64,000 nucleotides of DNA from Candidatus Woesearchaeota archaeon (GTDB taxonomy: Archaea; Nanobdellota; Nanobdellia; SCGC-AAA011-G17; JAGVZF01): positions 10,787 to 74,786 of the forward strand of contig JAGVZF010000013.1 in NCBI GenBank assembly GCA_018302785.1, written 5' to 3'. Numbering within the stretch: position 1 is the stretch's first letter; each line of letters starts with the position of its first letter. This document shows, one piece after another, positions 2,397 through 62,709 of this stretch. The notes beneath the pieces are model-generated. The model saw nothing but the letters and a program-made list of their open reading frames with translations. It was not told where the DNA came from and searched no databases. The position numbers were made by a program, and so were the translations under genes.

Positions 2397-2973
2397 ATGG
2401 AAAATATAAAAATTAACAATTTAATAAAATTGTATACTATATTGCTTCTAAATAAAGGTAATGTCCATGGTTACGATATTCTTAAACAGTACAATAAGTG
2501 CATCTCAAGTTTATCCGTTTTTAAACGAATTAAAAAGAAAAAAACTAATTCAACTAATTCAAATAAAAAAAGAAGGACAAAGGGACAAAAAGGCATACAG
2601 CCTCACTCCAAACGGCAAGAGATTTATTTCAAACACATTAAAGAAATGGGATGAACTTCTAGAAATTGCTTTTGTAAATAAAATCACTAAATGTTATCAT
2701 TGTGGTTGCGAACTTTACAATAATAAATATAAAAAATTAATAAATAAAATAGAACTACCCTTCTGTTGTTCTCATTGCGCAGATTCTTATAGGGAGATGT
2801 TTAAAAATAACAAATTATATGCTTGTAAAATATGCAGTTTTTCTTATAAAAACAAAAAATTAAAAGATAAATGTCAAAATTGGTGTAAATTACATAAAAG
2901 TTGTAATTTGGAAATTATTAAATATGCAGTTAATCAAGGAGGCAATGATGATAAACAAGAAATTCAAAATTAA
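2397..2973 (+). pseudogene. PadR/ArsR-like wHTH regulator fused to a TRASH-type Cys domain, interrupted by a 1-nt frameshift near 2490-2500
   Basis: Frame of 2397 gives LYTILLLNKGNVHGYDILKQ (PadR helix). Frame of 2461 continues ISASQVYPFLNELKRKKLIQ...KKAYSLTPNGKRF (wing). Then CYHCGCEL...LPFCCSHCADSY (TRASH/YHS-like CxxC...FCSxxC), plus a second Cys cluster CKICSF...CQNWCKLHKSC. Confidence 0.6.
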
Positions 2974-3027: not shown

Positions 3028-3933
3028 ATGCATTGTGAATCTTGTGAAATTACATTAAAGAGAGCTTTTAAAAAACTAAATGATGTTAAAGATGTAAAAC
3101 TCTCTTATGATAATGAAATTGCAGAAATTATTTATAATCCGGATATAAACATAGACTCAGTAATTGAAACAATAAGGTCCGTAGGTTATGACGCAACAGT
3201 TTATGATGGAAAAAACATAGACATTGAAAAACCAAAATTTAGCCATTATGTTAATTCTTTATTAGACAAAAAAAATGAAGTTGAAGGAAGTTTAATCAAA
3301 ATAACTATTCTTACTTTTATTACTTTACTTGGTATTCAAGCAATTGCATATTATGGATTTTTTATGGATATCCCAGAATTTTGGTCAAGATTTGGCTATT
3401 ATATTATTTTTCTAATTATTAGTATTGTATTAAGTGCAGTTGCTGTGTGGCATGTAAAAGCTTATGGTAATAATTTTACTTGCACGACGGGGATGATGAT
3501 TGGAATGACTATAGGTATGGTATCAGGTTTTTTAATTGGATTAATGGTTGGAGCAACAAATGGTATGTTTATAGGCTCTGTTGCAGGAATTGTAATTGGA
3601 ATGGTTGTTGGTACTTGGACTGGAATGTGTTGTGGTGTTATGGGAACTATAGAAGGTATGATGGCTGGTCTAATGGGTGGTTTGATGGGGTCAATGACTT
3701 CATTAATGTTGTTAAATGATCACCTTAAATTAATCATCCCAATTTTAGTAGTTGCATCTTCAGTAATTTTAATAGGCCTTGATTATCTTATCTTCAAGGA
3801 AACTACTGGAACTCAAATTCGTAAAATTAATAAACAGAGCTTCTTACCTTTTTTAACAGTCTGTTTCATAACAATGATGCTATTAACATGGTTAATGGTA
3901 TATGGTCCAAAATCAGCTTTATTTAGATTTTAA
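3028..3933 (+). CDS. HMA-domain protein fused to a Gly/Met-rich polytopic membrane domain
   Basis: MHCESCEITLKRAFKKLNDVKDV...GYDATV (HMA), then TM helices including TGMMIGMTIGMVSGFLIGLMVGATNGMFIGSVAGIVIGMVVGTWTGMCCGVMG. The first HMA strand (LKLRISG) is encoded in-frame upstream of the ATG but has no start codon. Confidence 0.6.
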   Translation: MHCESCEITLKRAFKKLNDVKDVKLSYDNEIAEIIYNPDINIDSVIETIRSVGYDATVYDGKNIDIEKPKFSHYVNSLLDKKNEVEGSLIKITILTFITLLGIQAIAYYGFFMDIPEFWSRFGYYIIFLIISIVLSAVAVWHVKAYGNNFTCTTGMMIGMTIGMVSGFLIGLMVGATNGMFIGSVAGIVIGMVVGTWTGMCCGVMGTIEGMMAGLMGGLMGSMTSLMLLNDHLKLIIPILVVASSVILIGLDYLIFKETTGTQIRKINKQSFLPFLTVCFITMMLLTWLMVYGPKSALFRF

Positions 3934-3935
3934 AA

Positions 3936-4373
3936 ATGTCAGAAGAAATTAAGTTTAAGAAAAGTAATATTATAGGAATTTTAGGAATAGTAATTATAGT
4001 TGTATTTGTTCTAGTTGCAGTAAGAAATGCAATTTCAAAAGACAATAATATTGGTACTGATCTTGTTAAGGGAGGAGATTCTGGAGGAAATAAAGTTGTT
4101 ATAGATGGAGACACTCAAATAATTAACTTGGGCGTTGCAAATTACAATTATGATCCTTCGGAAATTAGTGTTAAATCCGGCAAGTCAGTTAAGATTATAG
4201 GTAATATGCAACAGCTTCAAGGGTGCTTAAGGGCCTTTACAATACCAAAAATGGGGATATCAAAGGTCTTTAGTAATAAAGATAATATACTTGAATTTAC
4301 ACCAACTCAAAAAGGAAGATTTGGCTTTAGTTGTTCAATGGGCATGGGAACAGGTACCTTAATTGTAGAATGA
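3936..4373 (+). CDS. Membrane-anchored cupredoxin-like domain protein (Cupredoxin_1 type)
   Basis: N-terminal TM, then YDPSEISVKSGKSVKI...C...FTIPKMGI...EFTPTQKGRFGFSCSMGMGTGTLIVE, the pattern of small cupredoxin-like proteins found in metal operons. Confidence 0.65.
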   Translation: MSEEIKFKKSNIIGILGIVIIVVFVLVAVRNAISKDNNIGTDLVKGGDSGGNKVVIDGDTQIINLGVANYNYDPSEISVKSGKSVKIIGNMQQLQGCLRAFTIPKMGISKVFSNKDNILEFTPTQKGRFGFSCSMGMGTGTLIVE

Positions 4374-4840
4374 TTAAGTCTGTTTTTAAGAGGCCATATA
4401 TTTATTTTTTCATTCTAATTTTCATTGTTTATCTAACACTTGATATTATTATAAGTCAATTTTATGTAACTATTAGATACATCCCAAAATATCTAAACAC
4501 AATAAATTGGTTTGAATTAGGATTATCTATTTTTCTTACATTGGTTATAGCCTTTCTAGTTTCCTTGACACTTTTACTTTCGTATTTAAAATACAAACAA
4601 AGACAGAACGTTAAAAAGGGACTTACAGTAGCAGCTTTGGGGACTACTGGTGGATTTGCAGCAGGAGTTTGTACTGCTTGCGTTGCAGGAATTTTTCCGT
4701 TTATTTTTTCTTTATTTGGCATTAGTTTCTCATGGCTTTCTCTTCCTTTTAAAGGACTTGAATTTCAAATTTTTGTTATAATTTTATTAATTATAAGTTT
4801 ATATTTATTAAATAAAAGCGATCATATAAAAATTCGATGA
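4370..4840 (+). CDS. Polytopic membrane protein with an intramembrane CxxC (GGFAAGVCTACVAGIFPF)
   Basis: The ATG at 4370 overlaps the upstream stop (ATGA). 4-5 hydrophobic segments. Function unknown. Confidence 0.5.
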   Translation: MIKSVFKRPYIYFFILIFIVYLTLDIIISQFYVTIRYIPKYLNTINWFELGLSIFLTLVIAFLVSLTLLLSYLKYKQRQNVKKGLTVAALGTTGGFAAGVCTACVAGIFPFIFSLFGISFSWLSLPFKGLEFQIFVIILLIISLYLLNKSDHIKIR

Positions 4841-4870: not shown

Positions 4871-5422
4871 ATGGAAATTTTAATTAAAAACAAAATTTTA
4901 GGATTAATATTAATCGGAATGGCAATAATATTCTTAATAGCAGTAGTTATATTTAAAATTCAAATAGATAATCTAACTAACTCTTTAATGGAAGAAAGTG
5001 GTGGCACATGCATAAGTGAAGGTAAATGCCTTCATGAACAAAGTGATTTACCAGTATATGTTGGCGTAGCCATAGTCTTCATCAATTTAGCGCTTGGAAT
5101 TTATTTACTTATATTTGAAAAAACAAAAGAAAAATCAGAAAAAATACAAAAAGAAATAATTTACACTTTAAAAGAAACTAGAAAGAAACAAGATTACGAT
5201 GAAAAATTTGATTTCTTATTAAAAGCATTAAATGATGATGAAAAAAATATCATGAAAGCCTTAAAGGAGCAAGATGGTATTGAACAAGCTACCTTAAGAA
5301 TAAGAACAAATATGAGTAAGACAAAATTAAGCATAGTCTTATCAGAATTAGAAAAAAAAGGACTAGTTAAAAAAGTTCCAGAAGGCAAAAAGAATAGAAT
5401 ATACCTAAAAAACGCTTTCTGA
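4871..5422 (+). CDS. Membrane-anchored winged-helix transcriptional regulator
   Basis: Two TM segments flank an extracytoplasmic loop with GGTCISEGKCLHE. The C-terminal part is MarR/TrmB-like: NIMKALKEQDGIEQATLRIRTNMSKTKLSIVLSELEKKGLVKKV. Confidence 0.55.
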   Translation: MEILIKNKILGLILIGMAIIFLIAVVIFKIQIDNLTNSLMEESGGTCISEGKCLHEQSDLPVYVGVAIVFINLALGIYLLIFEKTKEKSEKIQKEIIYTLKETRKKQDYDEKFDFLLKALNDDEKNIMKALKEQDGIEQATLRIRTNMSKTKLSIVLSELEKKGLVKKVPEGKKNRIYLKNAF

Positions 5423-5537: not shown

Positions 5538-6290
5538 ATGGAAGAAGAAATAAATTCAAAAAGTAAAAATTTATGGGAGAAGGCAATTATTGCAGTTTTA
5601 GTAATAGGTCTGTCCTTTGCTACATTTAACCAATTTCAAATTAGCTCAATAGGAACAGGTAAAGAAATTCCAACAGGAATGTCAACTGTACAAGCTGCGG
5701 TAATTCCAACAGGTATCCCAAAAATATATGGGTCTGAGCTTAATATTAAATACGATGACGTTAGTGTTAATGATGCAGCAAAAGCTGACCAAACAATAAA
5801 GCTTTTGGGAAATCTAGATAATACTATAACTTTAGAAGGTAGTAATTTAGATAGATATGTAGAAATTGCTTCCCAAATGAGTTGTGAGTATTGTTGCGGT
5901 GCTAAATCAATAATATTTACAAAAGAAGACATTACAAGCCTTGAATCTAAAATACAAGAGGCAATTGCAGCTGGAAAATTAACAGAAGATCAAGCCAAAA
6001 CATACAGAAGAAAAGCAGGAGAAGCAGCATGCGGTTGTGCACATAGTTTTGCTATGAGAGGAATTGCTAAGTATTTAATCAAGAATCATGGATCAGAGTT
6101 TACTAATGAAGAAATCTTAAATGAAATGGCTAAATGGAAAACTTTGTTCTTTCCAACTCAAATGACAGCAAAAGCAGAAGCACTAAAGAGCCAAGGAATT
6201 GAATTTAGTTATTCAAATTTAGGTAGCAATAAATACAGAGGCATTGAAAGTGGCTCATCCTCTAATGGAGGAATGGTAGGAGGTTGTTAA
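5538..6290 (+). CDS. Membrane-anchored Cys-rich protein of unknown function ending in MVGGC
   Basis: N-terminal TM plus FQISS motif, Cys clusters SCEYCCGA and AACGCAHSFAMRG, and C-terminus SSSNGGMVGGC. Confidence 0.5.
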   Translation: MEEEINSKSKNLWEKAIIAVLVIGLSFATFNQFQISSIGTGKEIPTGMSTVQAAVIPTGIPKIYGSELNIKYDDVSVNDAAKADQTIKLLGNLDNTITLEGSNLDRYVEIASQMSCEYCCGAKSIIFTKEDITSLESKIQEAIAAGKLTEDQAKTYRRKAGEAACGCAHSFAMRGIAKYLIKNHGSEFTNEEILNEMAKWKTLFFPTQMTAKAEALKSQGIEFSYSNLGSNKYRGIESGSSSNGGMVGGC

Positions 6291-6292
6291 AG

Positions 6293-6568
6293 ATGAAACT
6301 AAATGCAAAACATTTTATTTTCACAATGACAACTTTTGTTGCAGTAGTATATATTATATGTGCAATACTTATTTTAATGGCACCTGTGACATCAATAAAA
6401 ATAGCTAACTTACTATTTCATGGACTTGACCTAACAAAAATATCAAGAACAATAGGTTTTGTTGACATAGTTTATGGATTTATAGTTAGCACTATTGCAA
6501 CAGTAATATATTCAGCAATTTTCGTGACAATTTGGAATTATTTTTATGATAGAATGGAGGTAAAATAA
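6293..6568 (+). CDS. Small 3-TM membrane protein
   Basis: The ORF-track frame was trimmed to the first ATG (6293), just after the upstream stop. Hydrophobic throughout. Confidence 0.45.
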   Translation: MKLNAKHFIFTMTTFVAVVYIICAILILMAPVTSIKIANLLFHGLDLTKISRTIGFVDIVYGFIVSTIATVIYSAIFVTIWNYFYDRMEVK

Positions 6569-6570
6569 AG

Positions 6571-6801
6571 ATGAAAAGCTTAACCATAATGGGAGTGATT
6601 GCAGTAGCTCTTTTAGTTTTTGTAGCTATTCAATCATTCCAAATAAGTGCTTTAAAAAATAGCATTAGTGGAAATGTAGTAGAATCTAGCAGCGGCAGCT
6701 CTGGTGAAAGCTACAACGATATGATGGCTAGAATGCATCCGGATCAAGTTACAAAAAGCACTAGCCCATCAAGCCAGCCAACTATGGTAGGTGGTTGCTA
6801 A
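6571..6801 (+). CDS. Small membrane-anchored Ser/Met-rich protein ending in MVGGC
   Basis: TM plus IQSFQISALK, a Ser-rich linker, MMARMHPDQ, and C-terminus SSQPTMVGGC. Its stop abuts the start of the Trx-CcdA gene. Confidence 0.5.
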   Translation: MKSLTIMGVIAVALLVFVAIQSFQISALKNSISGNVVESSSGSSGESYNDMMARMHPDQVTKSTSPSSQPTMVGGC

Positions 6802-7983
6802 ATGAAAAAACTTTTTTTTATTTTTTTATTTTTTTTATTAGTAATTCCATTTGCTTTAGCAAGTAGCAAAGTAATAATATATCAAAATTCTGCATGTGGT
6901 CATTGCTCAGTTTACCTTAATACTTTTAAACAACTTCTTAATGAAAAATCTATCCAGTATGATGAAAAAAATATTATAGCTGACAAAGAAGCACTTCAAG
7001 AATTAAATGAATTTACTAAAAAGAGAAACATTCCATTTGAACTTCAAGGTCATATGGTTATTGTATTTAATGAAGTAGTATTAGAAGGCCATGTTCCATT
7101 TCCAGTTATAGAAGAATTATTTGAAAAATATCCTAATTATGACTTCCCTAAATTAGTTATATACCAAGATTCGATGGAGGATCTTGTTACAGATTATATC
7201 ATTTTAGATCAAGATGGAAATAAAAAAGAGTGTACTACTGCTAACTCAATAGAAGATTGTAAATTAACTAATAATAAAGAAAAAAATATTATAGATAAAT
7301 CCTTACCAATCTTAGTTATTGTTAATGGATTATTTGCAGGTATTCACCCTTGCACAATAAGTGTTTTACTATTCTTTATAGCATTTTTATTCACAATAAA
7401 AAAATCTAGATTAGGCATATTTAAAATAGGTCTAGCCTACATATTAGGGATATTTATAGCTTATTTAGCTATAGGTTTAGGAATACTAAAAGCTTTATCA
7501 TTTAGTAATAGCCCTCATTTGGCAGCAAAAATAAGTGCTGTATTAGTAATTACCTTAGGGATAATAAATTTAATAGGTTTCTTTTACAAAAAAAGAAAAA
7601 TATCCTTAGGACTTCCAAAGATACTAAAACCAAAAGTTGCAGAGTTACTTCAAAAATCTACAATTCCAGCAGTTTTTATTGTTGGATTAATTGTAGGTAT
7701 TTGCTCGTTTGGTTGTACAGCAGGTATTTATTTATCTATAACTAGTTTATTATTGGCAAATTCTACCTATATGCAAGGCTTAGGCTATTTATTATTGTAT
7801 AATATTATGTTTGTACTTCCTTTAGTTTTAATATTGGTATTTGCTTCAACAACTAAGATAGTAAATAAAGTAACTAAATGGGAAGAATCTGAAAAGAAAT
7901 ATATAAAATTAATAGCGGGAATAATAATGATATTATTAGGATTATTAATTTTGGGGATAACATACATGCCTAAAGGAGGTTAA
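6802..7983 (+). CDS. Thioredoxin-fold domain fused to a CcdA/DsbD-like transmembrane thiol-disulfide electron transporter
   Basis: Signal, NSACGHCSVY (CxxC), then a 6-TM region with the conserved Cys in GIHPCTISVLLFF and GICSFGCTAGIY. Confidence 0.7.
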   Translation: MKKLFFIFLFFLLVIPFALASSKVIIYQNSACGHCSVYLNTFKQLLNEKSIQYDEKNIIADKEALQELNEFTKKRNIPFELQGHMVIVFNEVVLEGHVPFPVIEELFEKYPNYDFPKLVIYQDSMEDLVTDYIILDQDGNKKECTTANSIEDCKLTNNKEKNIIDKSLPILVIVNGLFAGIHPCTISVLLFFIAFLFTIKKSRLGIFKIGLAYILGIFIAYLAIGLGILKALSFSNSPHLAAKISAVLVITLGIINLIGFFYKKRKISLGLPKILKPKVAELLQKSTIPAVFIVGLIVGICSFGCTAGIYLSITSLLLANSTYMQGLGYLLLYNIMFVLPLVLILVFASTTKIVNKVTKWEESEKKYIKLIAGIIMILLGLLILGITYMPKGG

Positions 7984-7984
7984 A

Positions 7985-8140
7985 ATGTTCGGTTTTAAGA
8001 AAAAAGATCCAATTTGTGGAATGAAACAAAGTGAAAATGGAATAGTAAAATATAGGCAATGGTTTTGCTCTAATAAATGTCTAGACATATATGAAAAAGG
8101 AATAAAAAAGATGAGTAAAAAACAAAGTTGCTGCAGCTAA
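7985..8140 (+). CDS. 51-aa YHS/TRASH-type metal-binding mini-protein
   Basis: Own translation: MFGFKKKDPICGMKQSENGIVKYRQWFCSNKCLDIYEKGIKKMSKKQSCCS. It has the DPxCGM...FCSxxC pattern and is tightly packed between its neighbours. Too short for the ORF track. Confidence 0.6.
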   Translation: MFGFKKKDPICGMKQSENGIVKYRQWFCSNKCLDIYEKGIKKMSKKQSCCS

Positions 8141-8141
8141 A

Positions 8142-8732
8142 ATGAAGAAAGTAATTGAAAGTAGGTTAAAAAAGAAATATTTAGTACAAAAACCAATATT
8201 TTTCGGATTAATTGGAAGCTTAATTTTACTTAGTCTATATTTCTTAGTCTTAATTTTGGCAAATTCACCACAGCATGCTATTCAAGAATTTGCAAGAATG
8301 TGGTATTGGATACTTTTTTTGGTTATTGGTTTTGGTATTCAAATTGGCTTATATACATATATAAGATCTTATATTAAATTAAAAAGTATTTTAGGTATAA
8401 AGGGAAATATTGCAGCTACCGGAAGTGTTTCAACAGCTTCTATGCTGGCTTGCTGCGCTCATCATTTGTCAGATATTTTACCAATTATTGGACTAAGCGC
8501 TGCAGCAATTTTCTTTAACAAATATCAAATATTATTTATTATAATAGGTCTTTTATCTAACATAATGGGGATAGTTTATATGTTGAGAATTATTCAAAAA
8601 CACAATTTGTATGAAGAAGATGGTCTCACAAAAAAGTTGATGACGGCTAATTTTCAAACTATATTTTATTACACTTTAAGTCTAAGTGTAATAATTTTTA
8701 TTATAGCTTTATTAATAATAAGGAGGAACTAA
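8142..8732 (+). CDS. Polytopic membrane protein with an intramembrane CC-HH motif (SMLACCAHHLSDILP)
   Basis: ORF track. 5-6 hydrophobic segments. Function unknown. Confidence 0.45.
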   Translation: MKKVIESRLKKKYLVQKPIFFGLIGSLILLSLYFLVLILANSPQHAIQEFARMWYWILFLVIGFGIQIGLYTYIRSYIKLKSILGIKGNIAATGSVSTASMLACCAHHLSDILPIIGLSAAAIFFNKYQILFIIIGLLSNIMGIVYMLRIIQKHNLYEEDGLTKKLMTANFQTIFYYTLSLSVIIFIIALLIIRRN

Positions 8733-8735
8733 AAT

Positions 8736-9134
8736 ATGTCAAATAAAATGTTGGCAATAATAATCTTAATTGTTTTAGTGGGCGGAGCATTATTTGCATC
8801 TTTTCAATTCAAAGGAAGCAAAAACAATGATTATAATGATTTATTTAGCTTTAATAGAATAGCTGATGGAGATGAAGTTACCATAACCCTACAACCACAA
8901 AGTTATAGCAACGGAAAATTTAATGTTGAATTCTCAATTAATACCCATAGTGTAGAACTATCTCAGTTTAACCTAAAAGAAATTGTAACTTTAGAATATG
9001 ATGGAAAATCATTTAAACCATTTTCTGCTCCTGAATTAAGTGGGCACCATAGCTCAGGAATTTTTACTTTTGAAGTTGACAAAAAACCATTAAACTATGA
9101 ATTTAAAGTAGAAGGATTTAAAATCTTGGTTTAG
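8736..9134 (+). CDS. Membrane-anchored extracytoplasmic protein of unknown function (His pair SGHHSSG)
   Basis: N-terminal TM followed by a beta-rich sequence. Context only. Confidence 0.4.
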   Translation: MSNKMLAIIILIVLVGGALFASFQFKGSKNNDYNDLFSFNRIADGDEVTITLQPQSYSNGKFNVEFSINTHSVELSQFNLKEIVTLEYDGKSFKPFSAPELSGHHSSGIFTFEVDKKPLNYEFKVEGFKILV

Positions 9135-9135
9135 A

Positions 9136-9462
9136 ATGATATTTTATGTAATTACTTCAATATTTGTACTGTTTTTTATATTTGCTTTAATTAAAGATTT
9201 TATTTATAAGGTAACAAAAATAAAAGTTTGTGCAATATGTGCTGCAGTAAGTTTAACTTGGATATTTTTAATTATACTAAGCTTAATTGGATACAATATT
9301 GATAAACTAATAATAGGAATTTTAATGGGTCAGTCGATTGTTGGTATTATGTACTATTTAGAAAAAAAACTAAAAAATAAGTTATTCCTATCATTATCAA
9401 AACTGTTTACTATTGTAATTGGCACATTAATTGTTTATTCAATATTAAGATGGCTACCATGA
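9136..9462 (+). CDS. Small membrane protein with an intramembrane CxxC (KVCAICAAVSLTW)
   Basis: ORF track; 3-4 TM. Confidence 0.4.
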   Translation: MIFYVITSIFVLFFIFALIKDFIYKVTKIKVCAICAAVSLTWIFLIILSLIGYNIDKLIIGILMGQSIVGIMYYLEKKLKNKLFLSLSKLFTIVIGTLIVYSILRWLP

Positions 9463-9539
9463 GGAAAAATATTATTAGAAAGTCAAGGAAAAAGAAGCTA
9501 ATGGATCGGTTAAAGAAAAAACTAGAAAACTGTTGTTAA
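9459..9539 (+). CDS. Possible 26-aa basic peptide ending in Cys-Cys (MRKNIIRKSRKKKLMDRLKKKLENCC)
   Basis: Own translation. Its ATG overlaps the upstream stop (ATGA). It may not be expressed. Confidence 0.25.
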   Translation: MRKNIIRKSRKKKLMDRLKKKLENCC

Positions 9540-9544
9540 CTATT

Positions 9545-10171
9545 ATGTTATCTAAAACTAAAGCTGTTGTACATAGGTATAATAGATTAGCAGCTAACTA
9601 CGATGAGCGGTGGCGAGGATATTTAGATTCGACCCTTTCTAAAGCTCTTGAGATTATTGGACCTTGTCTAGATGATATTATACTAGACGCGGGGGGAGGA
9701 ACTGGTTTGCTGCCTGACTTGATGTTAAGAAATAATTGCAGATTTAGGCAATATGTTATTGCAGATTTATCTCCAAAAATGTTACAAAGGGCTGTCAAAA
9801 CACACAAAGGTGACAATAATATTAGTTATACTCTATGTGATTCACACAAACTACCTTTTCTGTCTGGATCATTTACAACAGTTGTTTCTAACAGCTCACT
9901 GCATTATCATCAAAATCTTGAGCAATCATTGTCAGAATTTTATAGAGTTCTACAACCATCAGGAAAATTAATTATTGTTGACTGGTGTAATGATCCGCTT
10001 TATTTCAAACTAATAACCAGAACACTCAATTTAACAAGCATGCCCTACCTTAGGCCAATTTCAAGTAAAGACTTAAGTGCAGCCCTTAATGCAACCGGAT
10101 TTAAAGTTGAGCATCTTGAAAAATGGTATTTTGGTATCTTCCCTCTAATGATATTAAAAACTATTAAATAA
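9545..10171 (+). CDS. Class I SAM-dependent methyltransferase (Methyltransf_11-like)
   Basis: Motif I ILDAGGGTGLL, VVSNSSLHY, and LQPSGKLIIVD. Trimmed to the first ATG. Confidence 0.75.
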   Translation: MLSKTKAVVHRYNRLAANYDERWRGYLDSTLSKALEIIGPCLDDIILDAGGGTGLLPDLMLRNNCRFRQYVIADLSPKMLQRAVKTHKGDNNISYTLCDSHKLPFLSGSFTTVVSNSSLHYHQNLEQSLSEFYRVLQPSGKLIIVDWCNDPLYFKLITRTLNLTSMPYLRPISSKDLSAALNATGFKVEHLEKWYFGIFPLMILKTIK

Positions 10172-27742: not shown

Positions 27743-28175
27743 TGTAGAATCTGGAGGAGATTCTAAAGCAGTTTCATGCACAGGTCCAGCTGGTCTTATG
27801 CAACTAAGTATAGATGCTGCAAATGATGTTAGAACTTCATTAGGCTCAGAATCAGAATATCCAAAAATTCAACATTATCAATTAAATGGACAAGGAAATC
27901 CAATATGCAGCTGCAGTTATTCCAAAGATTGTAGAGATGAGTCTATCGACTGGAGATTTAATAAGGATAAAAATGTTAAAGCAGGAACTCAATATTTACT
28001 TAAATTAATCAACAAATATAATAAAGATTTAAGGCTTGCATTATTGGCATATAATGCTGGTCCTGGTTCAGTAGACCAAGTCTGTCAAACTCCACCTACA
28101 AATATTAAAGAAATAAATTTTGATTATGATTCCTGCAAAAATAACAATATGTGCAAAAAATCTTTAATAAATTAA
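27717..28175 (+). CDS. Lytic transglycosylase (SLT) domain segment in a shifted frame, with no start codon upstream of the catalytic Glu
   Basis: The open frame from 27717 reads ELYINPVIDVESGGDSKAVSCTGPAGLMQL...LLAYNAGPGSV (E-S, GLMQ and AYNAG motifs). The first ATG (27798) lies after the catalytic ES. Confidence 0.6.
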   Translation, partial: ELYINPVIDVESGGDSKAVSCTGPAGLMQLSIDAANDVRTSLGSESEYPKIQHYQLNGQGNPICSCSYSKDCRDESIDWRFNKDKNVKAGTQYLLKLINKYNKDLRLALLAYNAGPGSVDQVCQTPPTNIKEINFDYDSCKNNNMCKKSLIN

Positions 28176-31100
28176 AAGAGCAAACAGGAATAGAATTAGA
28201 TATTACAAAACCAGTATATTTAGATCAAACTACAGTTACAGTATCAACAGAAACGCAAGTAGGATCTCAAAATCCTTGCACTAACGCAAAAATACTTAGT
28301 GATAAAGAAATAGAAGAAACCTCAAGTTATATTGATTTATATTGTACTGCAATAAATGAATTAAAGTCTTTAATTGATAATTATCCAGAATCTCCATTAA
28401 TTTCTTCTTCATATGAATTAATAGCAGATATTTATTTTAATTATCTAAAAAACAAATTATTAGCAAGAGACAACTATGAACTCGCTTTGTTAACAGCTAA
28501 TAGCTTACAAAAAGACTCAATAGAAGTAAAATTAAAAGATTTAAATAAAGCTATTGGAGAAAGCATAGAATATGGTCATGCATTATTAGATGATGAAGCA
28601 CTTGAAGTTTCACTATTAAGAGTAATTCCTAAAGAAGATAATGCAGAAGCAACATTAAGAATTGATTCAACAACAACTAATAAGAAAGTAAATGACCCTT
28701 TATTTGATGGAATTGGAACAGATAATAAAGGAAATTATAGAGTACATCTTATAGAAATACAATCTGATTTTATAAGAATTATAAAAACATATAGTAAAGA
28801 AGATAATAATGGTAAAGAAAATTTACCAGATCCTCAGAGATATACAATAACATTAAACAATAGACTGGAATTAGTTGAAGACAAATCAATAAATAAATTT
28901 CGCTTAATAGAATTACTTGGAACAGATACAAAAGAAGAAGCAATAGTAACTATTTTGCCAGGATCTGGAAAAGAAACAAGTACATCTGATTTCTCTTTAC
29001 ATATTCCAATTGAAAAAAGAGCTATAAGATTTACCCCAGAAGAAATAGATAATAAAATTGCAAGAACTAAAAGATTAATAGACAAGCTTGATTCAGTAAT
29101 TTCTAAATTAGAAAAGACATTAAAAGTGTGGAAAGCAACTTGCCTAATAACAATGGCAGTTTTGACAGTTAAAAATTCATTCTTCAATCCAATTAAGAAC
29201 CTAGCAAGAAGAACAGTCATGAGAGGTCCTGATGGTCAAAGCGGTTGGAATCAAATTTGCAGTGATAGACTCAGAACTGAACTTGATCCAAAAACTGGTA
29301 GGCCACGATTTAGAACTATTGATGAATGTATTGAGGCTAATGCTGATGAAATTGAACAGGAGATTTCTAACACAGAAAATGTTATCAAAAGAACAGAAAC
29401 TCTTGTCAAAAGCCTTGGAAATATTAAAGAAACTTCATCACAAGCTAAGTTATCAGAATTAATAGGAAATGATTTATCACAAGAACAAATTCAAAGGCTT
29501 AATGAAATCGGTAGACTAGGAAATGATGAGGCAAGAAATCTAATTTTGTTAAAGAATTCCAATCTAGACTCACCTCAACAAGCAGAATATAATAAAAAAA
29601 TCGAAGAGTACAAAAAAGAAGCAGATTTAGAAATTGGAATTCAGCAGAAACTTCAAAGTACAACTTATGAAGGTGAGGATAAACTTAGACTAGAATTATC
29701 TTTAAGGAAATCATTACCAGCTACAATAAAAGCTAGGGAATTATATGAATCAACCTCAGATATAGTAAAAAATTACATTACTGAAAATAATTTGGAAGAT
29801 AAAGACTTTAAACCAATATTCTTAGTTTATCCAGAGGAAAATCAGCCAGGGAATCTTACACCACAAGAACAAAAATTCAGCACATTCTATGATGAAAAAA
29901 AAGAAACCAATCTTAAAAGACTCTTTATTGGAAATACTCAGGCAGCCTTAAACGGTCAAGAGATTTATATTCAAACAGACAATAGAGGAAATATTATTAA
30001 TTACTATGTTTCAAGTGGTGGAGTATCAGATGATTCAAGATGTCCAAAATCTTTAGTTTACAGTGGAAGTCCAAGTGTTATTTATGATGATAAAGGTAAG
30101 CCATTAATAATCCCAATACAAACCCCTCAACTAGATAGTAACTATGCAGATTATGTAATATTTGGTTATGATCTAGACACTAAATTGCCAAATCAATATA
30201 GTATATTTAATGTTGGTCTTGATCAAATTATTTCTGAATTAAATAGAAATACAAGTGATGATTGTGTTGTAGAAAATAAAGAAAGCTTTGATGATAAAAC
30301 TCAGACTTCAAAAATAGTATCTCAAGCTTATAATGAAGCATTAAAAGGTTATCAAACAGTTCAAGAAAAAGGAATTAGCTCAAAAGTAAAAATACTTGGA
30401 AAAGAATACTTTGTTAATTATGCATCAAATAGAGTTGATGAGTTACTAAATCCACAATGCACAGATGTATTTAGCATTTCAGATTGCCATATTATGTTTG
30501 GTATTTGTGATCCAGTAATTTGTCCTACTTCAAGATTTGACTTTGGTAATACATGGAAAGTTGACAATGTTGTTCAAACTGGAATCGTTGGAAGTGTTTT
30601 ACTAGGAATTAAAAATTTAGCTCCATATGAACCAGTTCCTGTATGTTTAACTGGAGTTTTAGCAGGCCTCCAGAATATAAAATCTATATTAGAAGGCTTA
30701 AATGAATGTCTTCAAACAGCAAAAGTCAAAGGAGAATATGTAGGAATTTGTGATGCAATAACATCTATTTATATTTGTGAAACTGTTTGGAGGGAAGGTC
30801 TTGCATTATATAGATTAAAAGGAAAAGTAATAAACTGGATGAGTAAAGATATATTACATCAAGATCCTGATGGTGGAGAATATCTTACATTTAAGAATTC
30901 CTTAAAAAATGTTGAAGATAGTGCAAAATTCCTTACAAAAGACTATGCGCAAAATACATTTAAGGATTATGCTGGAAAGAGTTTCGATGAAGTTGGTTCT
31001 GTAATTTGCAGACAAGCAATTTATTCAAGCACTCCAGGAGTAGGCAAATTCCTAGATCAAGTCCTTCAACCAGAAAGCCCTCCTCAATTTACTGCAATAT

Positions 31101-34766: not shown

Positions 34767-37700
34767 TTGAAATCTAAACTTAAAAAGAAGTTGGTATATA
34801 GTAAATTTTTTTATTTATTTTTATTTATTTTTATTTTATTTATCTTAATATTCACAATTAATAAAGTAACAAATTTACCTATTCAAAAATCTCCGTTAAC
34901 TTTGAATCCTCAAGGTACAATTGATACTTCAATAGGAACTCATTTATGGTTAATGGATGATTGTTCTCATAGAGATCCTCAGCGTGGTGCCCCACTTTAT
35001 CTCCCAGCTGATTTCAGTTACGACTTTATAGCTAATAATTTTGATGTTTTTGTGATTGGGGATTGGAGCAATGGTCTTGGTTATAGAGAGCCTATTGTTG
35101 AGGGATATATTAGTCAAATTAAACAAATAAAAAGTGATGCTAAGTTTGTATATTATTCTGATTTCCAGCAGTTTCTTTGGGAAGAAACAACATTAAATGA
35201 GATGGAAGATTCTTTTTTACATAGTACAGATCCAGCAGCCTTGAATCTTATTGCTAATGGAAATAACGTTATTATTGATTGGAATGATGATACAAGAGAA
35301 AAGTATAGGGGAGAAGGTGAACCTATTTTTAGAGTTAGTAGTTACAATATTTATAGAAATAATAATCCCATACCTATACAAAATAGACCATATGGGGCAA
35401 CACAAATTACTGATAATCCAGGAATAGGATTGCATGAATATGAAATAAAAACTAAAAGAGATAGTGGTCAAGAATATAGTTATTCATGGAAAAAATCAGT
35501 AAATGTGGATAATACCATGCCTAGTTTTTATTTAACAGATGGTTATGTTGAAGTAACTGAGAATTCCCCAAATTATAACTTAGTTTTCCATTTAAAGCCA
35601 AATATACCAGATACTTCTGGATTAGATGGTGTTTTGTATATAGATTTAGACCCACAAAACTATGCCTTAGACTTTGGTAATATTCCAAATGAAATTAATC
35701 AGATGACTTGGAATGGGAATGAATATGTATTAACTTTAAATAATATTCCAATGAATCCAAGAAGTCCTGGTAGTTCTGGTAAATTTGGTTATGTTTTCTA
35801 TTTTGAATTAAAGAATAATAATATTGCTGTAGCTAGATTACCTAAAGCAAACAATGAATATTATACAACTAATGTTAATAATAGAATTAAGGCTATAGCA
35901 TATGGTACTTACCAACAGAATATAGCTAGCTTAAGTTGGAGAAACTTTTATGTTCAACATGCCATAGATATTCTAAATAATCTTCAACCTTATTTGGATG
36001 GAGTATATGTAGATGAACCCACTTCAGACCTAAATACAAGAGGAGAAACAATTCCAAAAGACCCAAATGTTAATGTTGCAACTTACAATAGTAATAATAT
36101 TCAGTTTATGCAACAATTAAGAAATACAATTGGTCCTAATAAATTGATTTTTCATAATACTCTAACAGAAGTAAATTTGCAGCCAGATGCAGATGGAGGA
36201 CTTATAGAAGGTTATGTTTATGATACTAATATGCCTGGTGGTTATCTTCTCTTACAAACTTGGATATTCCACATGAACAAAATGTTAGAAGCTGAAAATG
36301 GGGGATTAAGCTTTGCATTACCTGAGGGATTTCAAAATAATTGGCAACTTAGGATGTATATGTTAGCTTCGTATTTACTAACTAAGAAAGATGGAAGTTA
36401 CTTAAATATATATGAATGGGGTTGTCCTAGTCCTTCAACACATATATTCCCAGAGTGGGATAATACTAAAGTTGGTTTAGGGCAAGCTATTGATAATCCA
36501 AATCTAATTTCTGAATTAAATTATGGTAGTACTGACTTATACATTAGAAGATATCAAAATGGATTAGTTGTTGTTAATCCAACAAATTCTACTAAATCCT
36601 TAAATTTAGGGGGTTTGTATAAAGAAGTAGTATTAAATGGTGCTGGAAATGATATTATTTTAGTTGATGTTGCATGGCCTTTAACAATGCAGGGAAATTC
36701 AGGAAAGATTTTAATTGCACAAGTTTGTAGTGATGGAACTCCATATGGTTATTGTAGTGTAAATCAACCATTATTCTGTAACACTAATGGTCAATTAATT
36801 AATAATTGCCAACAATGTAGATGTTCATCTCAACAAAACTGCCAACCTGATGGGAGCTGTCAAGCTATTAATTTACCTCCTACAGCAACTATAACTCAAC
36901 CAACTCAAACAATATTTACTGTAAATACACCAATAAATTATGCAGGAACAGGAACAGATCCTGAAGATGGAAATTTACTAGCTTCTAGTTTATGTTGGAG
37001 TTATGATATTATTGGAGATACACAAGGTTATTTTGATTTAAGTTGTACAAGTAGTGGGACATTTACTCCTTCAATTTTAATAAATAATCAGCCAACAATA
37101 TACACACTTAAGTTAACCGTAATCGACAGTGGACTTCTTACAGATGAAGATACAAAAGATTTAACTATAACTCCATCATGTAGTGATATAGATGGAGATG
37201 GTTATGGAAACCCAGGATCTATACAATGCCCCAATGGATCTCAAATAGATTGTAACGATAATAACATTAATATTAATCCATCAGTAATTGAGAATAATTC
37301 TATAAGATGCTCAGACAATATTGATAATGATTGCGATAATTTGATAGACTTAAATGACCCAGATTGTGTAAATCAATGTATTGATAATGATAGAGATAAT
37401 TATGGAAGTGGACTATTATGTCTTGGACCAGATTGTGATGATAATAATATAAATGTACATAGTAATATAACTTGTAATTACAATGGAAATAGTTGTGGGA
37501 ACTATCAATTATGTTTATTAACCTGTCCTGTCCCTCCAAATGAAATTTGTGGAAATAATATAGATGATAATTGTAATGGTCCAATAGATGAAGGTTGTAC
37601 TCAACAATTGCAATTAAGTTTACAACAAGGCTATAACTTTATTTCTGTTCCATTTGAATTAACTAATAATAATATAAATGATGTATTTGTTGGGATACTT

Positions 37701-59888: not shown

Positions 59889-60311
59889 TTATTCAACAAT
59901 TAGTTTTCCTTGCATATCACTATGTCCTGATCCACAGAGAACGCTGCAAAAGAATGTAAATTCTCCTTTCTTATCAGCAGTAAACTCAATAGTTTCTGTT
60001 TTTCCAGATTCTAATTTCTTATTAATATTATAGTCACTTATAGCAAATCCATGTGCCACATCTTCACTAGTTATTATTAATTTCACTTTGTCTCCTTGCT
60101 TCACTTTAATAATAGATGGTTCAAATTCAAATTTTCTAGCTTTCATATTAATTACTACTTGATTTGCAGTAGTACCAGTATTCATATTATTATTTTCATT
60201 CACTTGATTATTACTATTATTATCTTGGTTATTAGAAGTATTAGTTTGTTGTTGACATCCAGAAACTACTAAAGTCATTGCTAATAATACTATTAAAAGA
60301 TATTTTAACAT
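59889..60311 (-). CDS. Lipoprotein-type cupredoxin with a canonical CuA-site spacing (COX2/NosZ-like domain)
   Basis: Lipobox LVVSGC. H-x34-C-x3-C-x3-H-x2-M counted directly (VAHGF...FFCSVLCGSGHSDM). Confidence 0.7.
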   Translation of the reverse strand: MLKYLLIVLLAMTLVVSGCQQQTNTSNNQDNNSNNQVNENNNMNTGTTANQVVINMKARKFEFEPSIIKVKQGDKVKLIITSEDVAHGFAISDYNINKKLESGKTETIEFTADKKGEFTFFCSVLCGSGHSDMQGKLIVE

Positions 60312-60323
60312 TTTAAATCCTCC

Positions 60324-61169
60324 TTAAACTTTTATTATTTTATTTGTTTTTAAATCTTTATATGTACCCATAGTTTCTACGTTTCTAAAAACTAGTGTTC
60401 CATCATCAGCTGTATCTCCCACACTACTCCAAATAAAATCAAATTGTGGATAATCCATAGCCTCTTTTGACAATAAAATTGTAGGAATCTTAGTTATTTT
60501 ATACTTTTGTATTAATTCTTTTCCTTCTTTAGAATTTATATCAATTTTCTCTTCATTTTTTATATACATTTTAATTTTTGCAATAGCTAATTTATGCTTT
60601 GTTACATCATAGCATTCTTTGCAATTTTCATCATATAACATAATTAAATTTACTATTCCTTTAATTTCATTAGTTTTTAAATCTAAATAAGGTGGATTTA
60701 TATTTCTTAATACAAAATAACCATCATTTTCTACAGTTCCAACTTTATCCCAAATATCAGTAATTACTTTATATTTAGATGCTTCTGGACTTAATATTAA
60801 TGCAGGAATTTTTTCGATTTTATATTTATTTATTAATTTATCTGCTTCAGCAAAACTATATTTTTTTTCATCATTGAATTTTATATTTAAATTTTTAAAT
60901 TCACTAACTGCTATACTCATATCAATACATTCTTTACAATTTTCATTTTCTATAATTACTAGGTTAATAGAAGGCAAACTTTGATTGCTTAAACCTCTAA
61001 TTTTATTTACCTCATCATTAGTATATTTCTCCAGCTGATAAATTTGTACAAAATTATAAGAAATTAATAATATGATTATAAGAAAGATAGAATATAAAAA
61101 ATGTTTATTATTAACAATTTTTAAGTTAATATGATAATTCTCCCTTTTTTTATTACTATTAATGTCCAT
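60324..61169 (-). CDS. Membrane-anchored protein with two tandem thioredoxin-like repeats, each with CKEC
   Basis: ENENCKECIDMS...KIPALILS...DGYFVLRNI..YLDLKTNEI, and YDENCKECYDVT...KIPTILLS...DGTLVFRNV..YKDLKTNKI. Confidence 0.6.
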   Translation of the reverse strand: MDINSNKKRENYHINLKIVNNKHFLYSIFLIIILLISYNFVQIYQLEKYTNDEVNKIRGLSNQSLPSINLVIIENENCKECIDMSIAVSEFKNLNIKFNDEKKYSFAEADKLINKYKIEKIPALILSPEASKYKVITDIWDKVGTVENDGYFVLRNINPPYLDLKTNEIKGIVNLIMLYDENCKECYDVTKHKLAIAKIKMYIKNEEKIDINSKEGKELIQKYKITKIPTILLSKEAMDYPQFDFIWSSVGDTADDGTLVFRNVETMGTYKDLKTNKIIKV

Positions 61170-61171
61170 AT

Positions 61172-61642
61172 CTAATTACTTAAGGTACATTCTGTTATAG
61201 AACTTAATCTCGATAAGGATTGAACTCCCACATATTTTTCTGCATTATAAATCCATGTTGGATATCCTTCAACTTGAGCATTAGCACAAGCTTCTTTTTC
61301 TTTAGTACATTCTACATAATTTACATATTTAAATGACTTTCCAAACATCTTTTTTTGAGCTTTACAATTAGGACACCAATCTGCCCCATACATTTTAATT
61401 CCTTTTTCACTTAAACATTTAGCAAAATCATCATATTGTCCAGGCTTACTATAATAAGAAACTGAGGCATAAACGATAGAAGCTAAAATTATGATGATTA
61501 TAGAATAAATTATGATTTTTTTACTATGTTTTTTCTTTTCGTGTTTTACTGGCTCTTCTTCCTTTTCTTGATGTGCCATTAATCTTCTTTTATGTTTACT
61601 TAAGTATTTATCTTCCATATTATGAAAAACATCCTTGGACAC
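61172..61642 (-). CDS. Membrane-anchored thioredoxin-like protein (WCPNC) of the kind fused to VKOR in other lineages
   Basis: MYGADWCPNCKAQKKMFG..YVECTKEKEACANAQVEGYPTWIY. The true start may be the internal Met. Confidence 0.65.
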   Translation of the reverse strand: MSKDVFHNMEDKYLSKHKRRLMAHQEKEEEPVKHEKKKHSKKIIIYSIIIIILASIVYASVSYYSKPGQYDDFAKCLSEKGIKMYGADWCPNCKAQKKMFGKSFKYVNYVECTKEKEACANAQVEGYPTWIYNAEKYVGVQSLSRLSSITECTLSN

Positions 61643-61869: not shown

Positions 61870-62709
61870 TTAAAGCTGTGCGTCAATCACTGCTTTAAAT
61901 GTCTCAAAAGGATATGCTCCAGCAATTCTAAACTGAACATATTTTCCATCTTCACTTTCAGTATACACTAAAGATTGTCCGTTATCCATTCCTTTTAATG
62001 CATCTACGTCAACACTACCTTTCTCTGCAATTACATAAAATCCTGGAGTTCCTGAAATTCCTGCATTAGATCCTTCACTTAAGTCATTATCAATTTCTGC
62101 TGTAGTTCCTTTATCTAAACAACTATCAAATTTCTTAGAATCTAACTTTAAGTCTTTAGCAATTTGTTTAAACATGTCAATTGCCTTATCATTACCACTC
62201 CATTCTGGATTTTTCTTAAATAATTCATCATGATACTCCCAATACTTATTTTGCTCTAAAGCACAATTTGCAGCTTCAGCAGCTTTTTGAGCTTGTGGAT
62301 GAATTTGTCTTAATGGATAATCCTTATAAACTAATTTTACCTTTCCAGTTTTAATATATTGTTCTTCTAATTGTGGTAATGTTCCTGTATAAAATCTCTC
62401 ACAGAAAGGACATTGATAATCGCTATATTCTATAATTGTAATCTTAGCATTTTTATCTCCCCTTACAGGATCATCTCCAATAGATAAAGAAACCTTTGAA
62501 GGATTTGTATTCCCTTGTGTTGGTCCAGCAGCAGTTGGATTATTATTGCCTGAGTTGTCTACAACAGCAGCTCCTGTTCCATCATTATTAAATCTAAAAC
62601 CACTTGTAAATATAGAAATTATTAAAAGTAAGCCTAAAACAGCGCTTAAACCTTGCCATATTGTTACTTTTTTAATTTTAAAAGATTCTTTTTCTGTATT
62701 TTCTTCCAT
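61870..62709 (-). CDS. DsbA/BdbD-like extracytoplasmic thiol-disulfide oxidoreductase
   Basis: N-terminal TM. AKITIIEYSDYQCPFCERFY. Confidence 0.8.
   Translation of the reverse strand: MEENTEKESFKIKKVTIWQGLSAVLGLLLIISIFTSGFRFNNDGTGAAVVDNSGNNNPTAAGPTQGNTNPSKVSLSIGDDPVRGDKNAKITIIEYSDYQCPFCERFYTGTLPQLEEQYIKTGKVKLVYKDYPLRQIHPQAQKAAEAANCALEQNKYWEYHDELFKKNPEWSGNDKAIDMFKQIAKDLKLDSKKFDSCLDKGTTAEIDNDLSEGSNAGISGTPGFYVIAEKGSVDVDALKGMDNGQSLVYTESEDGKYVQFRIAGAYPFETFKAVIDAQL

Follow-up and report, generated by a model that had tools for sequence, protein, structure and literature searches.

The stretch of DNA described here, referred to throughout as 'the window', comprises 64,000 nucleotides of contig JAGVZF010000013.1 from a Candidatus Woesearchaeota archaeon. 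It contains an operon that encodes two membrane-anchored proteins, one of 250 amino acids (aa) and one of 76 aa, that finish with the same five residues, and a second cluster, some 55 kb away on the opposite strand, that encodes a third small protein of similar build. We refer to the first two as the large and the small tail protein. The large protein ends ...GSSSNGGMVGGC and the small one ...SSQPTMVGGC; six-frame translation of the window, the G+C content of which is 28.6%, yields no MVGGC strings other than these two. By composition, ~0.0035 pairs of open reading frames (ORFs) with identical last five residues are expected in this window. Both proteins begin with a hydrophobic helix, followed by FNQFQISS in the large protein and by IQSFQISA in the small. 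An earlier note on this DNA had called attention to the shared pentapeptide and to the transmembrane (TM) helix with its Q-x-F-Q-I-S motif, and translation bears out both observations.

The tail is strongly conserved. A large protein collection holds 2,626 relatives of the 250-aa protein, and among the best 120 of these, 118 end in exactly MVGGC and the remaining two are truncated. All 24 matches to the 76-aa protein end in the same way. In a scan confined to one genome per species, the large family proved to be present in 390 genomes; 80 of the loci were kept and, with three others, these form a set of 83 loci (1.08 Mb) in which 170 ORFs end MVGGC and four end QVGGC. The five tail codons differ synonymously among loci, and the stop that follows them—immediate in all 172 ORFs examined—may be TAA (115), TGA (32) or TAG (25). 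Because the codons vary synonymously and all three stops are used, selection acts on the peptide, and the protein genuinely ends there. A DNA-level repeat as the source of MVGGC is likewise ruled out by the synonymous variation, and read-through, selenocysteine or pyrrolysine after the cysteine by the occurrence of TAA, TGA and TAG at that point, with TAA dominant.

The operon is restricted to DPANN archaea. Of the 80 kept loci, 73 are labelled as DPANN (Woese-, Nano-, Pace-, Aenigm- or Micrarchaeota) or simply as 'archaeon', and the other seven, differently labelled, are probably mis-binned contigs. An exhaustive search by profile among 1.84 billion representatives turned up no more than 301 clusters (50% identity), and the superfamily is therefore compact and lineage-restricted. 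Among 149 such cluster representatives, 69 end MVGGC, 28 end [QI]VGGC and 32 end in close variants (MVGAC, MVGSC, MVGDC, WVGEC, MAGGC, QQGGC and others). A terminal or near-terminal cysteine, in the form [MQ]-V-G-[GSAD]-C, is thus kept in 129, even where the cysteine motifs of the core have drifted; the 20 that lack it are mostly fragments. The consensus is [MQ]-V-G-[GSAD]-C-COOH, often with Leu-Pro at positions -8 and -7.

Between its membrane helix and its tail, the large protein carries a domain with the invariant elements SCEYCCG, CGCAHS..MRG and KWK.L.FP, of which the first two provide five cysteines and a histidine; the tail cysteine is additional to these five. In a model made with AlphaFold2 (AF2) from a 40-sequence alignment (predicted local distance difference test, pLDDT, 90.4), the domain is all-helical, the N-terminal helix spans residues 2-36, and short bridges bring the CxxCC and CxC motifs together. 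Comparison of this confident model with the PDB by Foldseek gave no known fold (best E 1.4), and a profile search of the PDB with the large family gave no match. None of the three tail proteins of the window belongs to a family in Pfam or NCBIfam. A full-text literature search for MVGGC found no relevant paper, and the literature on DPANN archaea with copper and C-terminal cysteine likewise held nothing relevant. The earlier note, too, had been unable to name a described family. For the tail, the five-cysteine domain and the operon, these searches found no descriptive family model, structure or paper, and the large domain is a new fold. Kinship with the PCYCGC family (PF13798), to which the pattern CGC..H..RG seemed to point, was rejected: there is no Pfam match, and hhalign, comparing the alignment of the large family with PCYCGC proteins of the same islands, returned a probability of 8%, confined to the TM segment. 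Among long relatives, one domain fusion, with FKBP, was found, and nothing informative.

The AF2 models also suggest what the tail might do. In the window protein, the last ten residues have a mean pLDDT of 79. In a relative with a 25-residue linker (P0096), the mean falls to 50 within the linker and is 72 over the last seven residues, GSMVGGC, a pattern from which the predictor seems to place the tail back against the domain. A variant of the large domain (FTCDYCCG...CGCAHS...AQGMAKW), 29% identical to the window protein (E 4e-20), forms a second subfamily found in metagenomes, most members of which have no tail. The tail-less paralogue is followed in 39 cases, about two thirds of the instances that have an ORF downstream, by a gene for a small protein ending [SN]L..LP[SG]MVGGC, and one sub-branch (L161-L168) combines a tail on the large protein with a small MVGGC protein encoded next to it downstream. 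Since tailed and tail-less paralogues alike are paired with a small MVGGC protein, the tail works with the domain in cis or in trans.

Aenigmarchaeota (L042 5769-6317 and L047 10960-11490) have an additional, diverged relative of the large domain, a paralogue with NCQCGHH... and IDRWKEIFYPGG, which sits between the small tail gene and the membrane protein gene and ends ..AGSCSA or ..AGSCNV, another variant with a near-terminal cysteine. The membrane protein at 4331-4840 of the window shows slight similarity (E 7) to the N-terminal membrane module of a 412-aa paralogue; as a 'Rosetta stone' link this is a weak lead.

The tail is modular. Approximately 95 small MVGGC proteins, of 44-143 aa, are encoded in the 83 loci, and they fall into at least five unrelated classes: those with MMARMHPDQ, those with GWTE.EKMNYE[MH]HGT[IL]PAR, those with ..TRYS.., those that consist of a plain helix plus linker, and those that end [SN]L..LP[SG]MVGGC. 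The window protein is of the first class, and the motif GE[ST]Y[DE][EQ]MMARMHPDQ is common to all 24 of its matches, as are the membrane helix and Q-x-F-Q-I, save in two records, one of which is chimeric and the other truncated at its N-terminus. In 42 of the 95 there are Met/His motifs of the kind that binds Cu(I) or Ag(I). What these proteins share is a single cysteine in the same place. In the window protein, the tail cysteine is the sole cysteine, and in all 94 small proteins with a detectable helix it is the only one past that helix. Thirteen small and eight large tail proteins have, in addition, a cytoplasmic N-terminal CC motif; some tail proteins begin with a cytoplasmic extension rich in CC and His. 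The tail proteins are predicted to be extracytoplasmic because their N-terminal extensions are positively charged and their partners have signal peptides. The polar motif [NQ]-x-[FIV]-Q-[IL], which caps the membrane helix (window 5598-5640 and 6619-6660) on its outer side, is shared by large and most small proteins; it is found in 68 of the 95 small ones, and in 37 of the 63 large ones (79 in all) in which the scan detected a TM helix. The motif M-x-M-H-P-[GD] occurs in three unrelated families of these islands, as MMARMHPDQ, MEQMHPGE and EHMSHHPD.

The genes that surround the tail proteins are listed in Table 1. Families of neighbouring genes were obtained by all-against-all clustering of ORFs from 84 loci, and a conserved order emerges: a DUF7343 membrane winged-helix regulator, the large tail protein, in some loci DUF5676, one or two small tail proteins, a DUF411/CopG-like protein, a membrane protein, either a protein that ends ..DCCKE or a membrane protein with CAICA...ECCKKW, and two uncharacterised proteins. 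The membrane protein is either one of ~178 aa that starts HCPLC or, as in the window, a CcdA-like domain fused to the DUF411-like one. One or two small tail genes lie downstream in 59 of the 66 loci that have at least 1.5 kb after the large gene. Among the 44 loci with at least 4 kb downstream, a thioredoxin-fold gene is present in 35 and a DUF411-like gene in 30; a gene for a CPLC membrane protein or a CcdA fusion is present in 38. In the second subfamily, a gene for a membrane-anchored multi-thioredoxin protein directly follows the small tail gene in 38 of ~45 loci. The earlier note would have withdrawn its proposal of a link between tail and thioredoxin had the motif not been conserved in homologues and had no such neighbours been found; the 118 exact tails and the 35 of 44 loci show the reverse. 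Its placing of the tail genes just upstream of a thioredoxin-fold gene holds for the 76-aa gene (6801/6802), and not for the 250-aa gene, which lies two genes upstream in the same operon.

Table 1. Genes and features of the two clusters, in window coordinates
Feature	Position	Strand	Remarks
HMA domain fused to Gly/Met-rich membrane protein	3028..3933	+	Pfam HMA 1.8e-11
Cupredoxin	3936..4373	+	Pfam Cupredoxin_1 1.2e-11
Membrane protein with GVCTACVAG	4331..4840	+	
Membrane-bound winged-helix regulator DUF7343	4871..5422	+	Pfam PF24034 E 9e-11; extracytoplasmic loop GGTCISEGKCLHE
Large MVGGC protein, 250 aa	5538..6290	+	N-terminal membrane helix with NQFQIS, helical domain, Ser/Gly linker, MVGGC
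MVGGC codons, large protein	6273..6287	+	stop codon 6288-6290
DUF5676 two-TM protein between tail genes	6284..6568	+	Pfam PF18926 E 4.7e-12
Small MVGGC protein, 76 aa	6571..6801	+	membrane helix with QSFQIS, Met/His motif (ESYNDMMARMHPDQ), polar linker, MVGGC
MVGGC codons, small protein	6784..6798	+	stop codon 6799-6801; next gene from 6802
Signal peptide, CopG/DUF411-like thioredoxin fold (CGHC, GHM, EGHVP), CcdA/DsbD-like six-TM domain (HPC..., FGC...)	6802..7983	+	
YHS/TRASH-like Cys protein, 51 aa, ends SCCS	7985..8140	+	weak Pfam YHS and DUF2116 matches; recurs, e.g. L074
Three uncharacterised cluster genes	8142..9462	+	conserved; synteny in 51 loci for family 4, in 24 for family 8
CCAHH membrane protein	8142-8732	+	
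SGHH extracytoplasmic protein	8736-9134	+	
CAICA membrane protein	9136-9462	+	
Cupredoxin, CuA-type C-x3-C-x3-H-x2-M (CSVLCGSGHSDM)	59889..60311	-	Pfam Cupredoxin_1 3.4e-16, COX2 1.6e-10; last gene
Membrane-anchored tandem thioredoxin-like protein, two CKEC repeats	60324..61169	-	Pfam Thioredoxin_2
Membrane-anchored thioredoxin, WCPNC	61172..61642	-	Pfam Thioredoxin 3.1e-5; directly downstream of third small gene
Third small tail protein, 75 aa	61620..61847	-	membrane helix with IQTIQI, polar linker, C-terminus PESLREVPSSVQGCFS (...VPSSVQGCFS)
DsbA-like thioredoxin fold	61870..62709	-	Pfam Thioredoxin_4 3.8e-31; upstream of third small gene; synteny conserved

The DUF7343 regulator (family 2) is present in 67 of the 84 loci and is conserved directly upstream of the large gene. 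Its two TM helices enclose the loop GGTCISEGKCLHE and are followed by a cytoplasmic winged helix, a layout suggestive of a one-component sensor, set in the membrane, for metal or redox conditions outside the cell. The C-x(4-7)-C-x-H loop is kept in only 22 of the 76 members of the DUF7343 family. DUF5676 is an accessory, found (as family 9) in 23 loci, about a quarter. The 51-aa YHS/TRASH-like protein is probably a cytoplasmic metal-binding protein. The three genes at 8142-9462 have no relatives in Pfam or the PDB, and the SGHH protein among them stayed nameless in profile searches of both.

The immediate neighbour of the small tail gene merits closer description. In most loci it is a true CopG homologue in which CGCC, SCHT, EGHVP and PGMPxGSPGM are conserved (PDB 6WIS, E 1.8e-18). 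The window version matches Pfam Glutaredoxin (E 3.4e-7), and DUF411 (PF04214) at E 0.0018 (18.4 bits, below the cut-off of 27). It is similar by BLAST (E 5e-12) to a bona fide DUF411 protein that matches PF04214 at 1.4e-24 and 6WIS at 1.8e-18, and its domain is therefore a diverged CopG/DUF411 homologue. CGHC and GHM stand in place of CGCC and CHT, and the CxCC copper-cluster motif is absent. The CcdA fusion is found in 10 loci, all 10 with CGHC, and CGCC in most of the 31 separate versions. Because it combines CGHC instead of CxCC with a CcdA-like fusion, the window protein may work as a disulfide oxidoreductase and not through a Cu4 cluster. Its membrane half contains ...IHPCT... and ...SFGCT..., and matches NCBIfam DsbD (E 1.3e-5), NCBIfam ArsG (E 7.9e-7) and Pfam SfLAP (E 1.8e-6), though no match reaches its curated cut-off; this half is unrelated to the CPLC membrane protein of other loci. 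The fusion that the earlier note placed directly after the 76-aa gene is indeed there, with the thioredoxin part now recognizable as CopG/DUF411-like, and the CcdA-like part lineage-specific rather than a constant companion.

The third small protein belongs to a family of five members, 57-100% identical, all ending PESLREVPS.VQGCFS, and its surroundings have a conserved order of their own: DsbA-like, third small protein, thioredoxin, tandem thioredoxin, cupredoxin. The tandem thioredoxin is a homologue of multi-thioredoxin family 15 of the second subfamily (tblastn E 1.7e-45). The WCPNC thioredoxin is a homologue of family 16, the members of which are elsewhere preceded by proteins of 47-58 aa that end GGGCG[RI]. 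The third protein is a diverged variant of the [SN]L..LP.MVGGC class. Its link to the MVGGC regions, across the ~55 kb that separate them, had been put forward in the earlier note, and is justified because the tail SLREVPSxVQGCFS parallels SL.NLPSMVGGC, and because homologues of its thioredoxins (families 15 and 16) occur inside MVGGC islands. The cupredoxin that ends this cluster has a lipobox-like signal, LVVSGCQQ, and similar CuA-type cupredoxins end multi-thioredoxin clusters elsewhere (e.g. L033 8371-8763). Its full CuA-type motif occurs here in an organism of a group reported to be without respiratory chains.

Copper-related genes are frequent around the core. They include those for HMA domains, P-type ATPases, cupredoxins, multicopper oxidase, PCYCGC, TRASH/YHS-like and Met/His-rich proteins. 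In the window, the copper-type genes upstream of the regulator (3028-4840) are in the same order as in L004. In the polytopic membrane domain of the HMA protein, Gly and Met are exceptionally abundant (GMMIGMTIGMVSGF...); the protein is no P-type ATPase and may be a novel metal permease. Still further upstream, on the reverse strand (1749-2327), lies a gene of family 7, which is also represented in related loci; its secreted product is rich in Met and His (YYMEQMHPGELHEKM...MVNMMMGR...) and has a SHOCT domain and a C-terminal TM helix.

Three known systems invite comparison. In SoxY, the substrate is carried on the cysteine of a carboxy-terminal GGCGG (VTIGGC...) swinging arm (PMC6067878, PMC5336275, PMC11237559), and, according to the title of a paper cited in another article (reference 11 in PMC10451225), SoxV, an orthologue of CcdA, serves to reduce the periplasmic thioredoxin SoxW. 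The proteins described here resemble SoxY in having an extracytoplasmic, Gly-flanked reactive cysteine at the extreme C-terminus—VTIGGCGG in SoxY; MVGGC, QVGGC and GGGCG[RI] here, a resemblance of motif only—and resemble the Sox system as a whole in having a flexible arm serviced by periplasmic thiol-disulfide oxidoreductases (in Sox, the thioredoxins SoxS and SoxW and the CcdA-like SoxV). They differ in scaffold, SoxY being an Ig-like beta-sandwich (PF13501) paired with SoxZ whereas here there is a helical five-cysteine domain, or a nearly domain-less peptide. They differ also in copper context, in DPANN lineage, and in that the cysteine is usually the very last residue. Membership of SoxY is excluded, the three tail proteins having no match to PF13501 or NCBIfam SoxY and the AF2 model of the large one being all-helical; SoxZ, SoxXA and SoxB were absent from the loci with Pfam-annotated genes and from the recurrent families. 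The tail proteins, then, are not homologues of SoxY; by analogy, they probably work in a like manner, through an arm that inserts into partner sites.

CopG binds a Cys-bridged Cu4 cluster and has been proposed to interconvert Cu(I) and Cu(II) (PMC7558416). In proteobacteria, CopG/CutG is encoded with CutF, a small secreted Cys-motif protein with a conserved extreme C-terminal motif that is needed for cuproenzyme maturation (PMC8456105, PMC7558416). The cutFOG arrangement is echoed here, a CopG homologue (CxCC, SCHT, EGHVP, Met-rich extension) being encoded just downstream of the small tail gene in most loci. Unlike the tail proteins, CutF-like (DUF2946) proteins have CxxxC and a C-terminal Pro-Pro, lack a terminal cysteine, and are not membrane-anchored. 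In TlpA-Sco and ScsB/C-type systems, membrane thioredoxins fed by CcdA or DsbD keep the cysteines of copper chaperones reduced. Here, too, an extracytoplasmic thioredoxin fold and a DsbD/CcdA conduit are encoded with membrane-anchored, cysteine-bearing copper-handling proteins and a CuA-type cupredoxin, but Sco and Scs have a thioredoxin fold of their own, with CxxxC or CxxC, and the client here is a single cysteine on an unstructured tail. Homologues of Sco, PCuAC and Scs were not detected.

Several classes of protein defined by C-terminal or cysteine motifs were considered and set aside. Lipobox lipoproteins do not fit, since the cysteine is the last residue, 30-220 residues past the hydrophobic segment rather than after a signal peptide. 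Nor do the substrates of archaeosortase (PGF-CTERM), rhombosortase (GlyGly-CTERM) or sortase (LPXTG), since no helix or basic tail follows the cysteine. Prenylation of the CaaX or Rab type is excluded by the location of a single cysteine at -1 after Gly-Gly, instead of at -4 or in CC/CXC, and by the predicted extracytoplasmic site. Ubiquitin-like proteins, ThiS, MoaD and SAMPs, which end in GG(+X), are excluded by fold (helical or unstructured, with no beta-grasp) and by the absence of ThiF/E1 and JAMM among the recurrent families. Precursors of ribosomally synthesized and post-translationally modified peptides were rejected on their defining features, no modifying enzyme being conserved.

We put at about evens the proposal that MVGGC is a portable C-terminal cysteine carrier arm at the end of a flexible tether rich in Ser, Gly and Ala, borne by membrane-anchored, outward-facing proteins of a DPANN operon for copper/thiol homeostasis. 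As we envisage it, the small Gly-Gly pair would let the end of the chain slip into a tight pocket on a partner and so place the terminal thiol beside the partner's reactive cysteines. The partners would be the five-cysteine helical domain, whether on the same chain or on another, and the thioredoxin-fold protein encoded immediately downstream, be it CopG/DUF411-like, a multi-thioredoxin or one with WCPNC. The cargo on the sulfur of the arm is most likely Cu(I), which the Met/His motifs of the small proteins would take up before it passes to the CopG-type centre; a possible alternative is sulfane sulfur or a mixed disulfide. Cu(I) is favoured by context: CopG is encoded next door, other copper genes lie nearby, and 42 of the small proteins have Met/His motifs. 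A thioredoxin-fold partner, reduced through the fused CcdA-like domain or the CPLC membrane protein, would keep the arm as a free thiol, or reset it to one. The terminal motif, the Gly-Gly, the long, low-complexity tether, the single cysteine, the several tails per operon and the obligatory company of thioredoxin folds and of a CxxC- or CcdA-type membrane protein together match the design of the SoxY carrier. This would be a known principle, that of a carrier arm working with thioredoxin and CcdA-type proteins, in a new lineage and on new scaffolds, and probably with a new cargo. Of the three options offered in the earlier note, a redox carrier and a metal-chaperone arm gain plausibility from conservation and synteny; lipidation or processing does not, no modifying enzyme being conserved in the cluster. 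A bolder form of the proposal is that DPANN archaea independently invented a membrane-tethered substrate-carrier thiol, an MVGGC module that any exported protein could be given and that shuttles Cu(I), or works as a redox cofactor in a glutathione-like way, between the five-cysteine metallodomain and CopG- or thioredoxin-type enzymes; we advance it tentatively, and think it appreciably less probable than the carrier arm as such.

A number of observations weigh against the carrier-arm proposal, or narrow it. Gln replaces Met at -5 in ~25% of divergent relatives. Met is therefore not an obligatory ligand, a Met-Cys site for Cu(I), as contemplated in the earlier note, cannot be the general function, and the five residues would seem to be mainly a docking element. 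The cysteine is not terminal in the GGGCG[RI] and VQGCFS variants, so a free carboxylate on it is not essential everywhere. A lone thiolate is a weak site for Cu(I) unless two arms, or a partner, contribute. Docking itself is suggested only by block means of pLDDT and by gene order. DUF411 directly follows the small gene in only 31 of 59 first-type clusters, and a compact Aenigmarchaeota operon stands amid housekeeping genes with no ATPase or cupredoxin nearby. Finally, the hydrophobic segment of the small proteins is followed by V-Q-[AS], where signal peptidase could cut; the segment would then be lost, and the mature small peptide would not be tethered as we assume.

Foremost among the other explanations, though on balance an unlikely one, is that the small proteins form a tethered thiol buffer: a membrane-anchored surrogate for glutathione that protects surface thiols from copper-catalysed oxidation and has no specific cargo. 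Arm-arm or arm-protein disulfides would form outside the cell and be recycled by glutaredoxin- or thioredoxin-fold neighbours fed by CcdA-like proteins. A cell without an outer membrane is unable to retain a soluble thiol, and the single extracytoplasmic cysteine in all assessable small proteins, of which each cluster encodes one or two copies and sometimes more, is what such a buffer would call for. The partner domain in the window scores as a glutaredoxin and has a CGHC of the type found in protein disulfide isomerase, and DsbA-like and multi-thioredoxin proteins are encoded in the same islands. But a buffer leaves unexplained why five residues, and the Leu-Pro upstream of them, should be nearly invariant across phyla, why the tail should also be present on a 250-aa five-cysteine protein, and why there should be Met/His motifs; and the neighbour, in most loci, is not a CxxC oxidoreductase but a copper-cluster protein, CopG with the canonical CxCC.

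Less probable again is that MVGGC is an assembly tag, the terminal cysteine being permanently bonded, by a disulfide or as a shared metal ligand, to the odd fifth cysteine of the domain, and so stapling small subunits and domain together. The arithmetic of five domain cysteines plus one in the tail would be accounted for, as would the pairing of the tail-less paralogue with a separately encoded tail protein and the recovery of AF2 confidence at the tail. Clusters, however, have more tails than domains, the large protein having its own tail plus one or two more. The GGGCG[RI] proteins, like the third protein of the window, occur beside a thioredoxin with no large-family gene adjacent, and a flexible linker of 10-30 residues is needless for a static staple. 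As for a processing or anchoring signal, whereby the cysteine would be lipidated, cleaved or cross-linked by an enzyme encoded elsewhere (e.g. as a C-terminal membrane or S-layer anchor once the N-terminal signal peptide has been removed), the strict C-terminal position and upstream Leu-Pro do resemble enzyme recognition motifs, MVGGC fits the lipobox residue pattern (PROSITE) and the V-Q-[AS] site could be cleaved by signal peptidase, but no transferase, peptidase or sortase-like candidate is conserved in >160 loci, known C-terminal sorting signals need a following TM helix and CaaX needs its cysteine at -4, neither of which holds, and the tight coupling to thioredoxin-fold and copper genes goes unexplained, so that we consider it the least probable of all.

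DPANN archaea are abundant, mostly uncultivated, and rich in unannotated small genes. The finding accounts for a whole operon of such genes in ~390 species-level genomes, and provides both a searchable five-residue tag and a new cysteine-rich fold. It also supplies a testable idea, namely that single-membrane cells without a periplasm tether copper-binding or redox-active thiols against loss by diffusion. If the arm does carry Cu(I) into a CopG-type centre, CopG would gain a defined delivery partner. The arm would then be a second, independent swinging-arm carrier outside the cytoplasmic multienzyme complexes, and would extend the SoxY principle from sulfur oxidation to metal/thiol homeostasis at the surface of periplasm-less cells.

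Some further features of these islands may be recorded. A second terminal motif, a Cys-Cys pair, is found in the same operons on proteins that face the cytoplasm (..QSCCS, ..SGCCH, ..ECCKKW, ..DCCKE), among them those encoded at 7985-8140 (+) of the window and at L074 9916-10074, L008 12270-12719 and L074 10623-11123; such ends may be the cytoplasmic counterpart of the outer cysteine arm. A class I S-adenosylmethionine-dependent methyltransferase is encoded at the end of the window operon (9533-10171, +), and methyltransferases of that type, some of which score as TehB/TPMT, recur in related islands (L002 3277-3819, L084 1168-1779). Upstream, at 2461-2973 (+), is the gene for a PadR-like regulator with a Cys-rich C-terminal region (CYHCGC...CCSHC...CKIC...CQNWC), representative of family 10, which is found in 22 loci. 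Well away from both clusters are three consecutive and very long ORFs on the forward strand (28151-33223, 34767-38081 and 39494-43417; 1690, 1104 and 1307 aa), which may encode large surface proteins of the kind typical of DPANN genomes.

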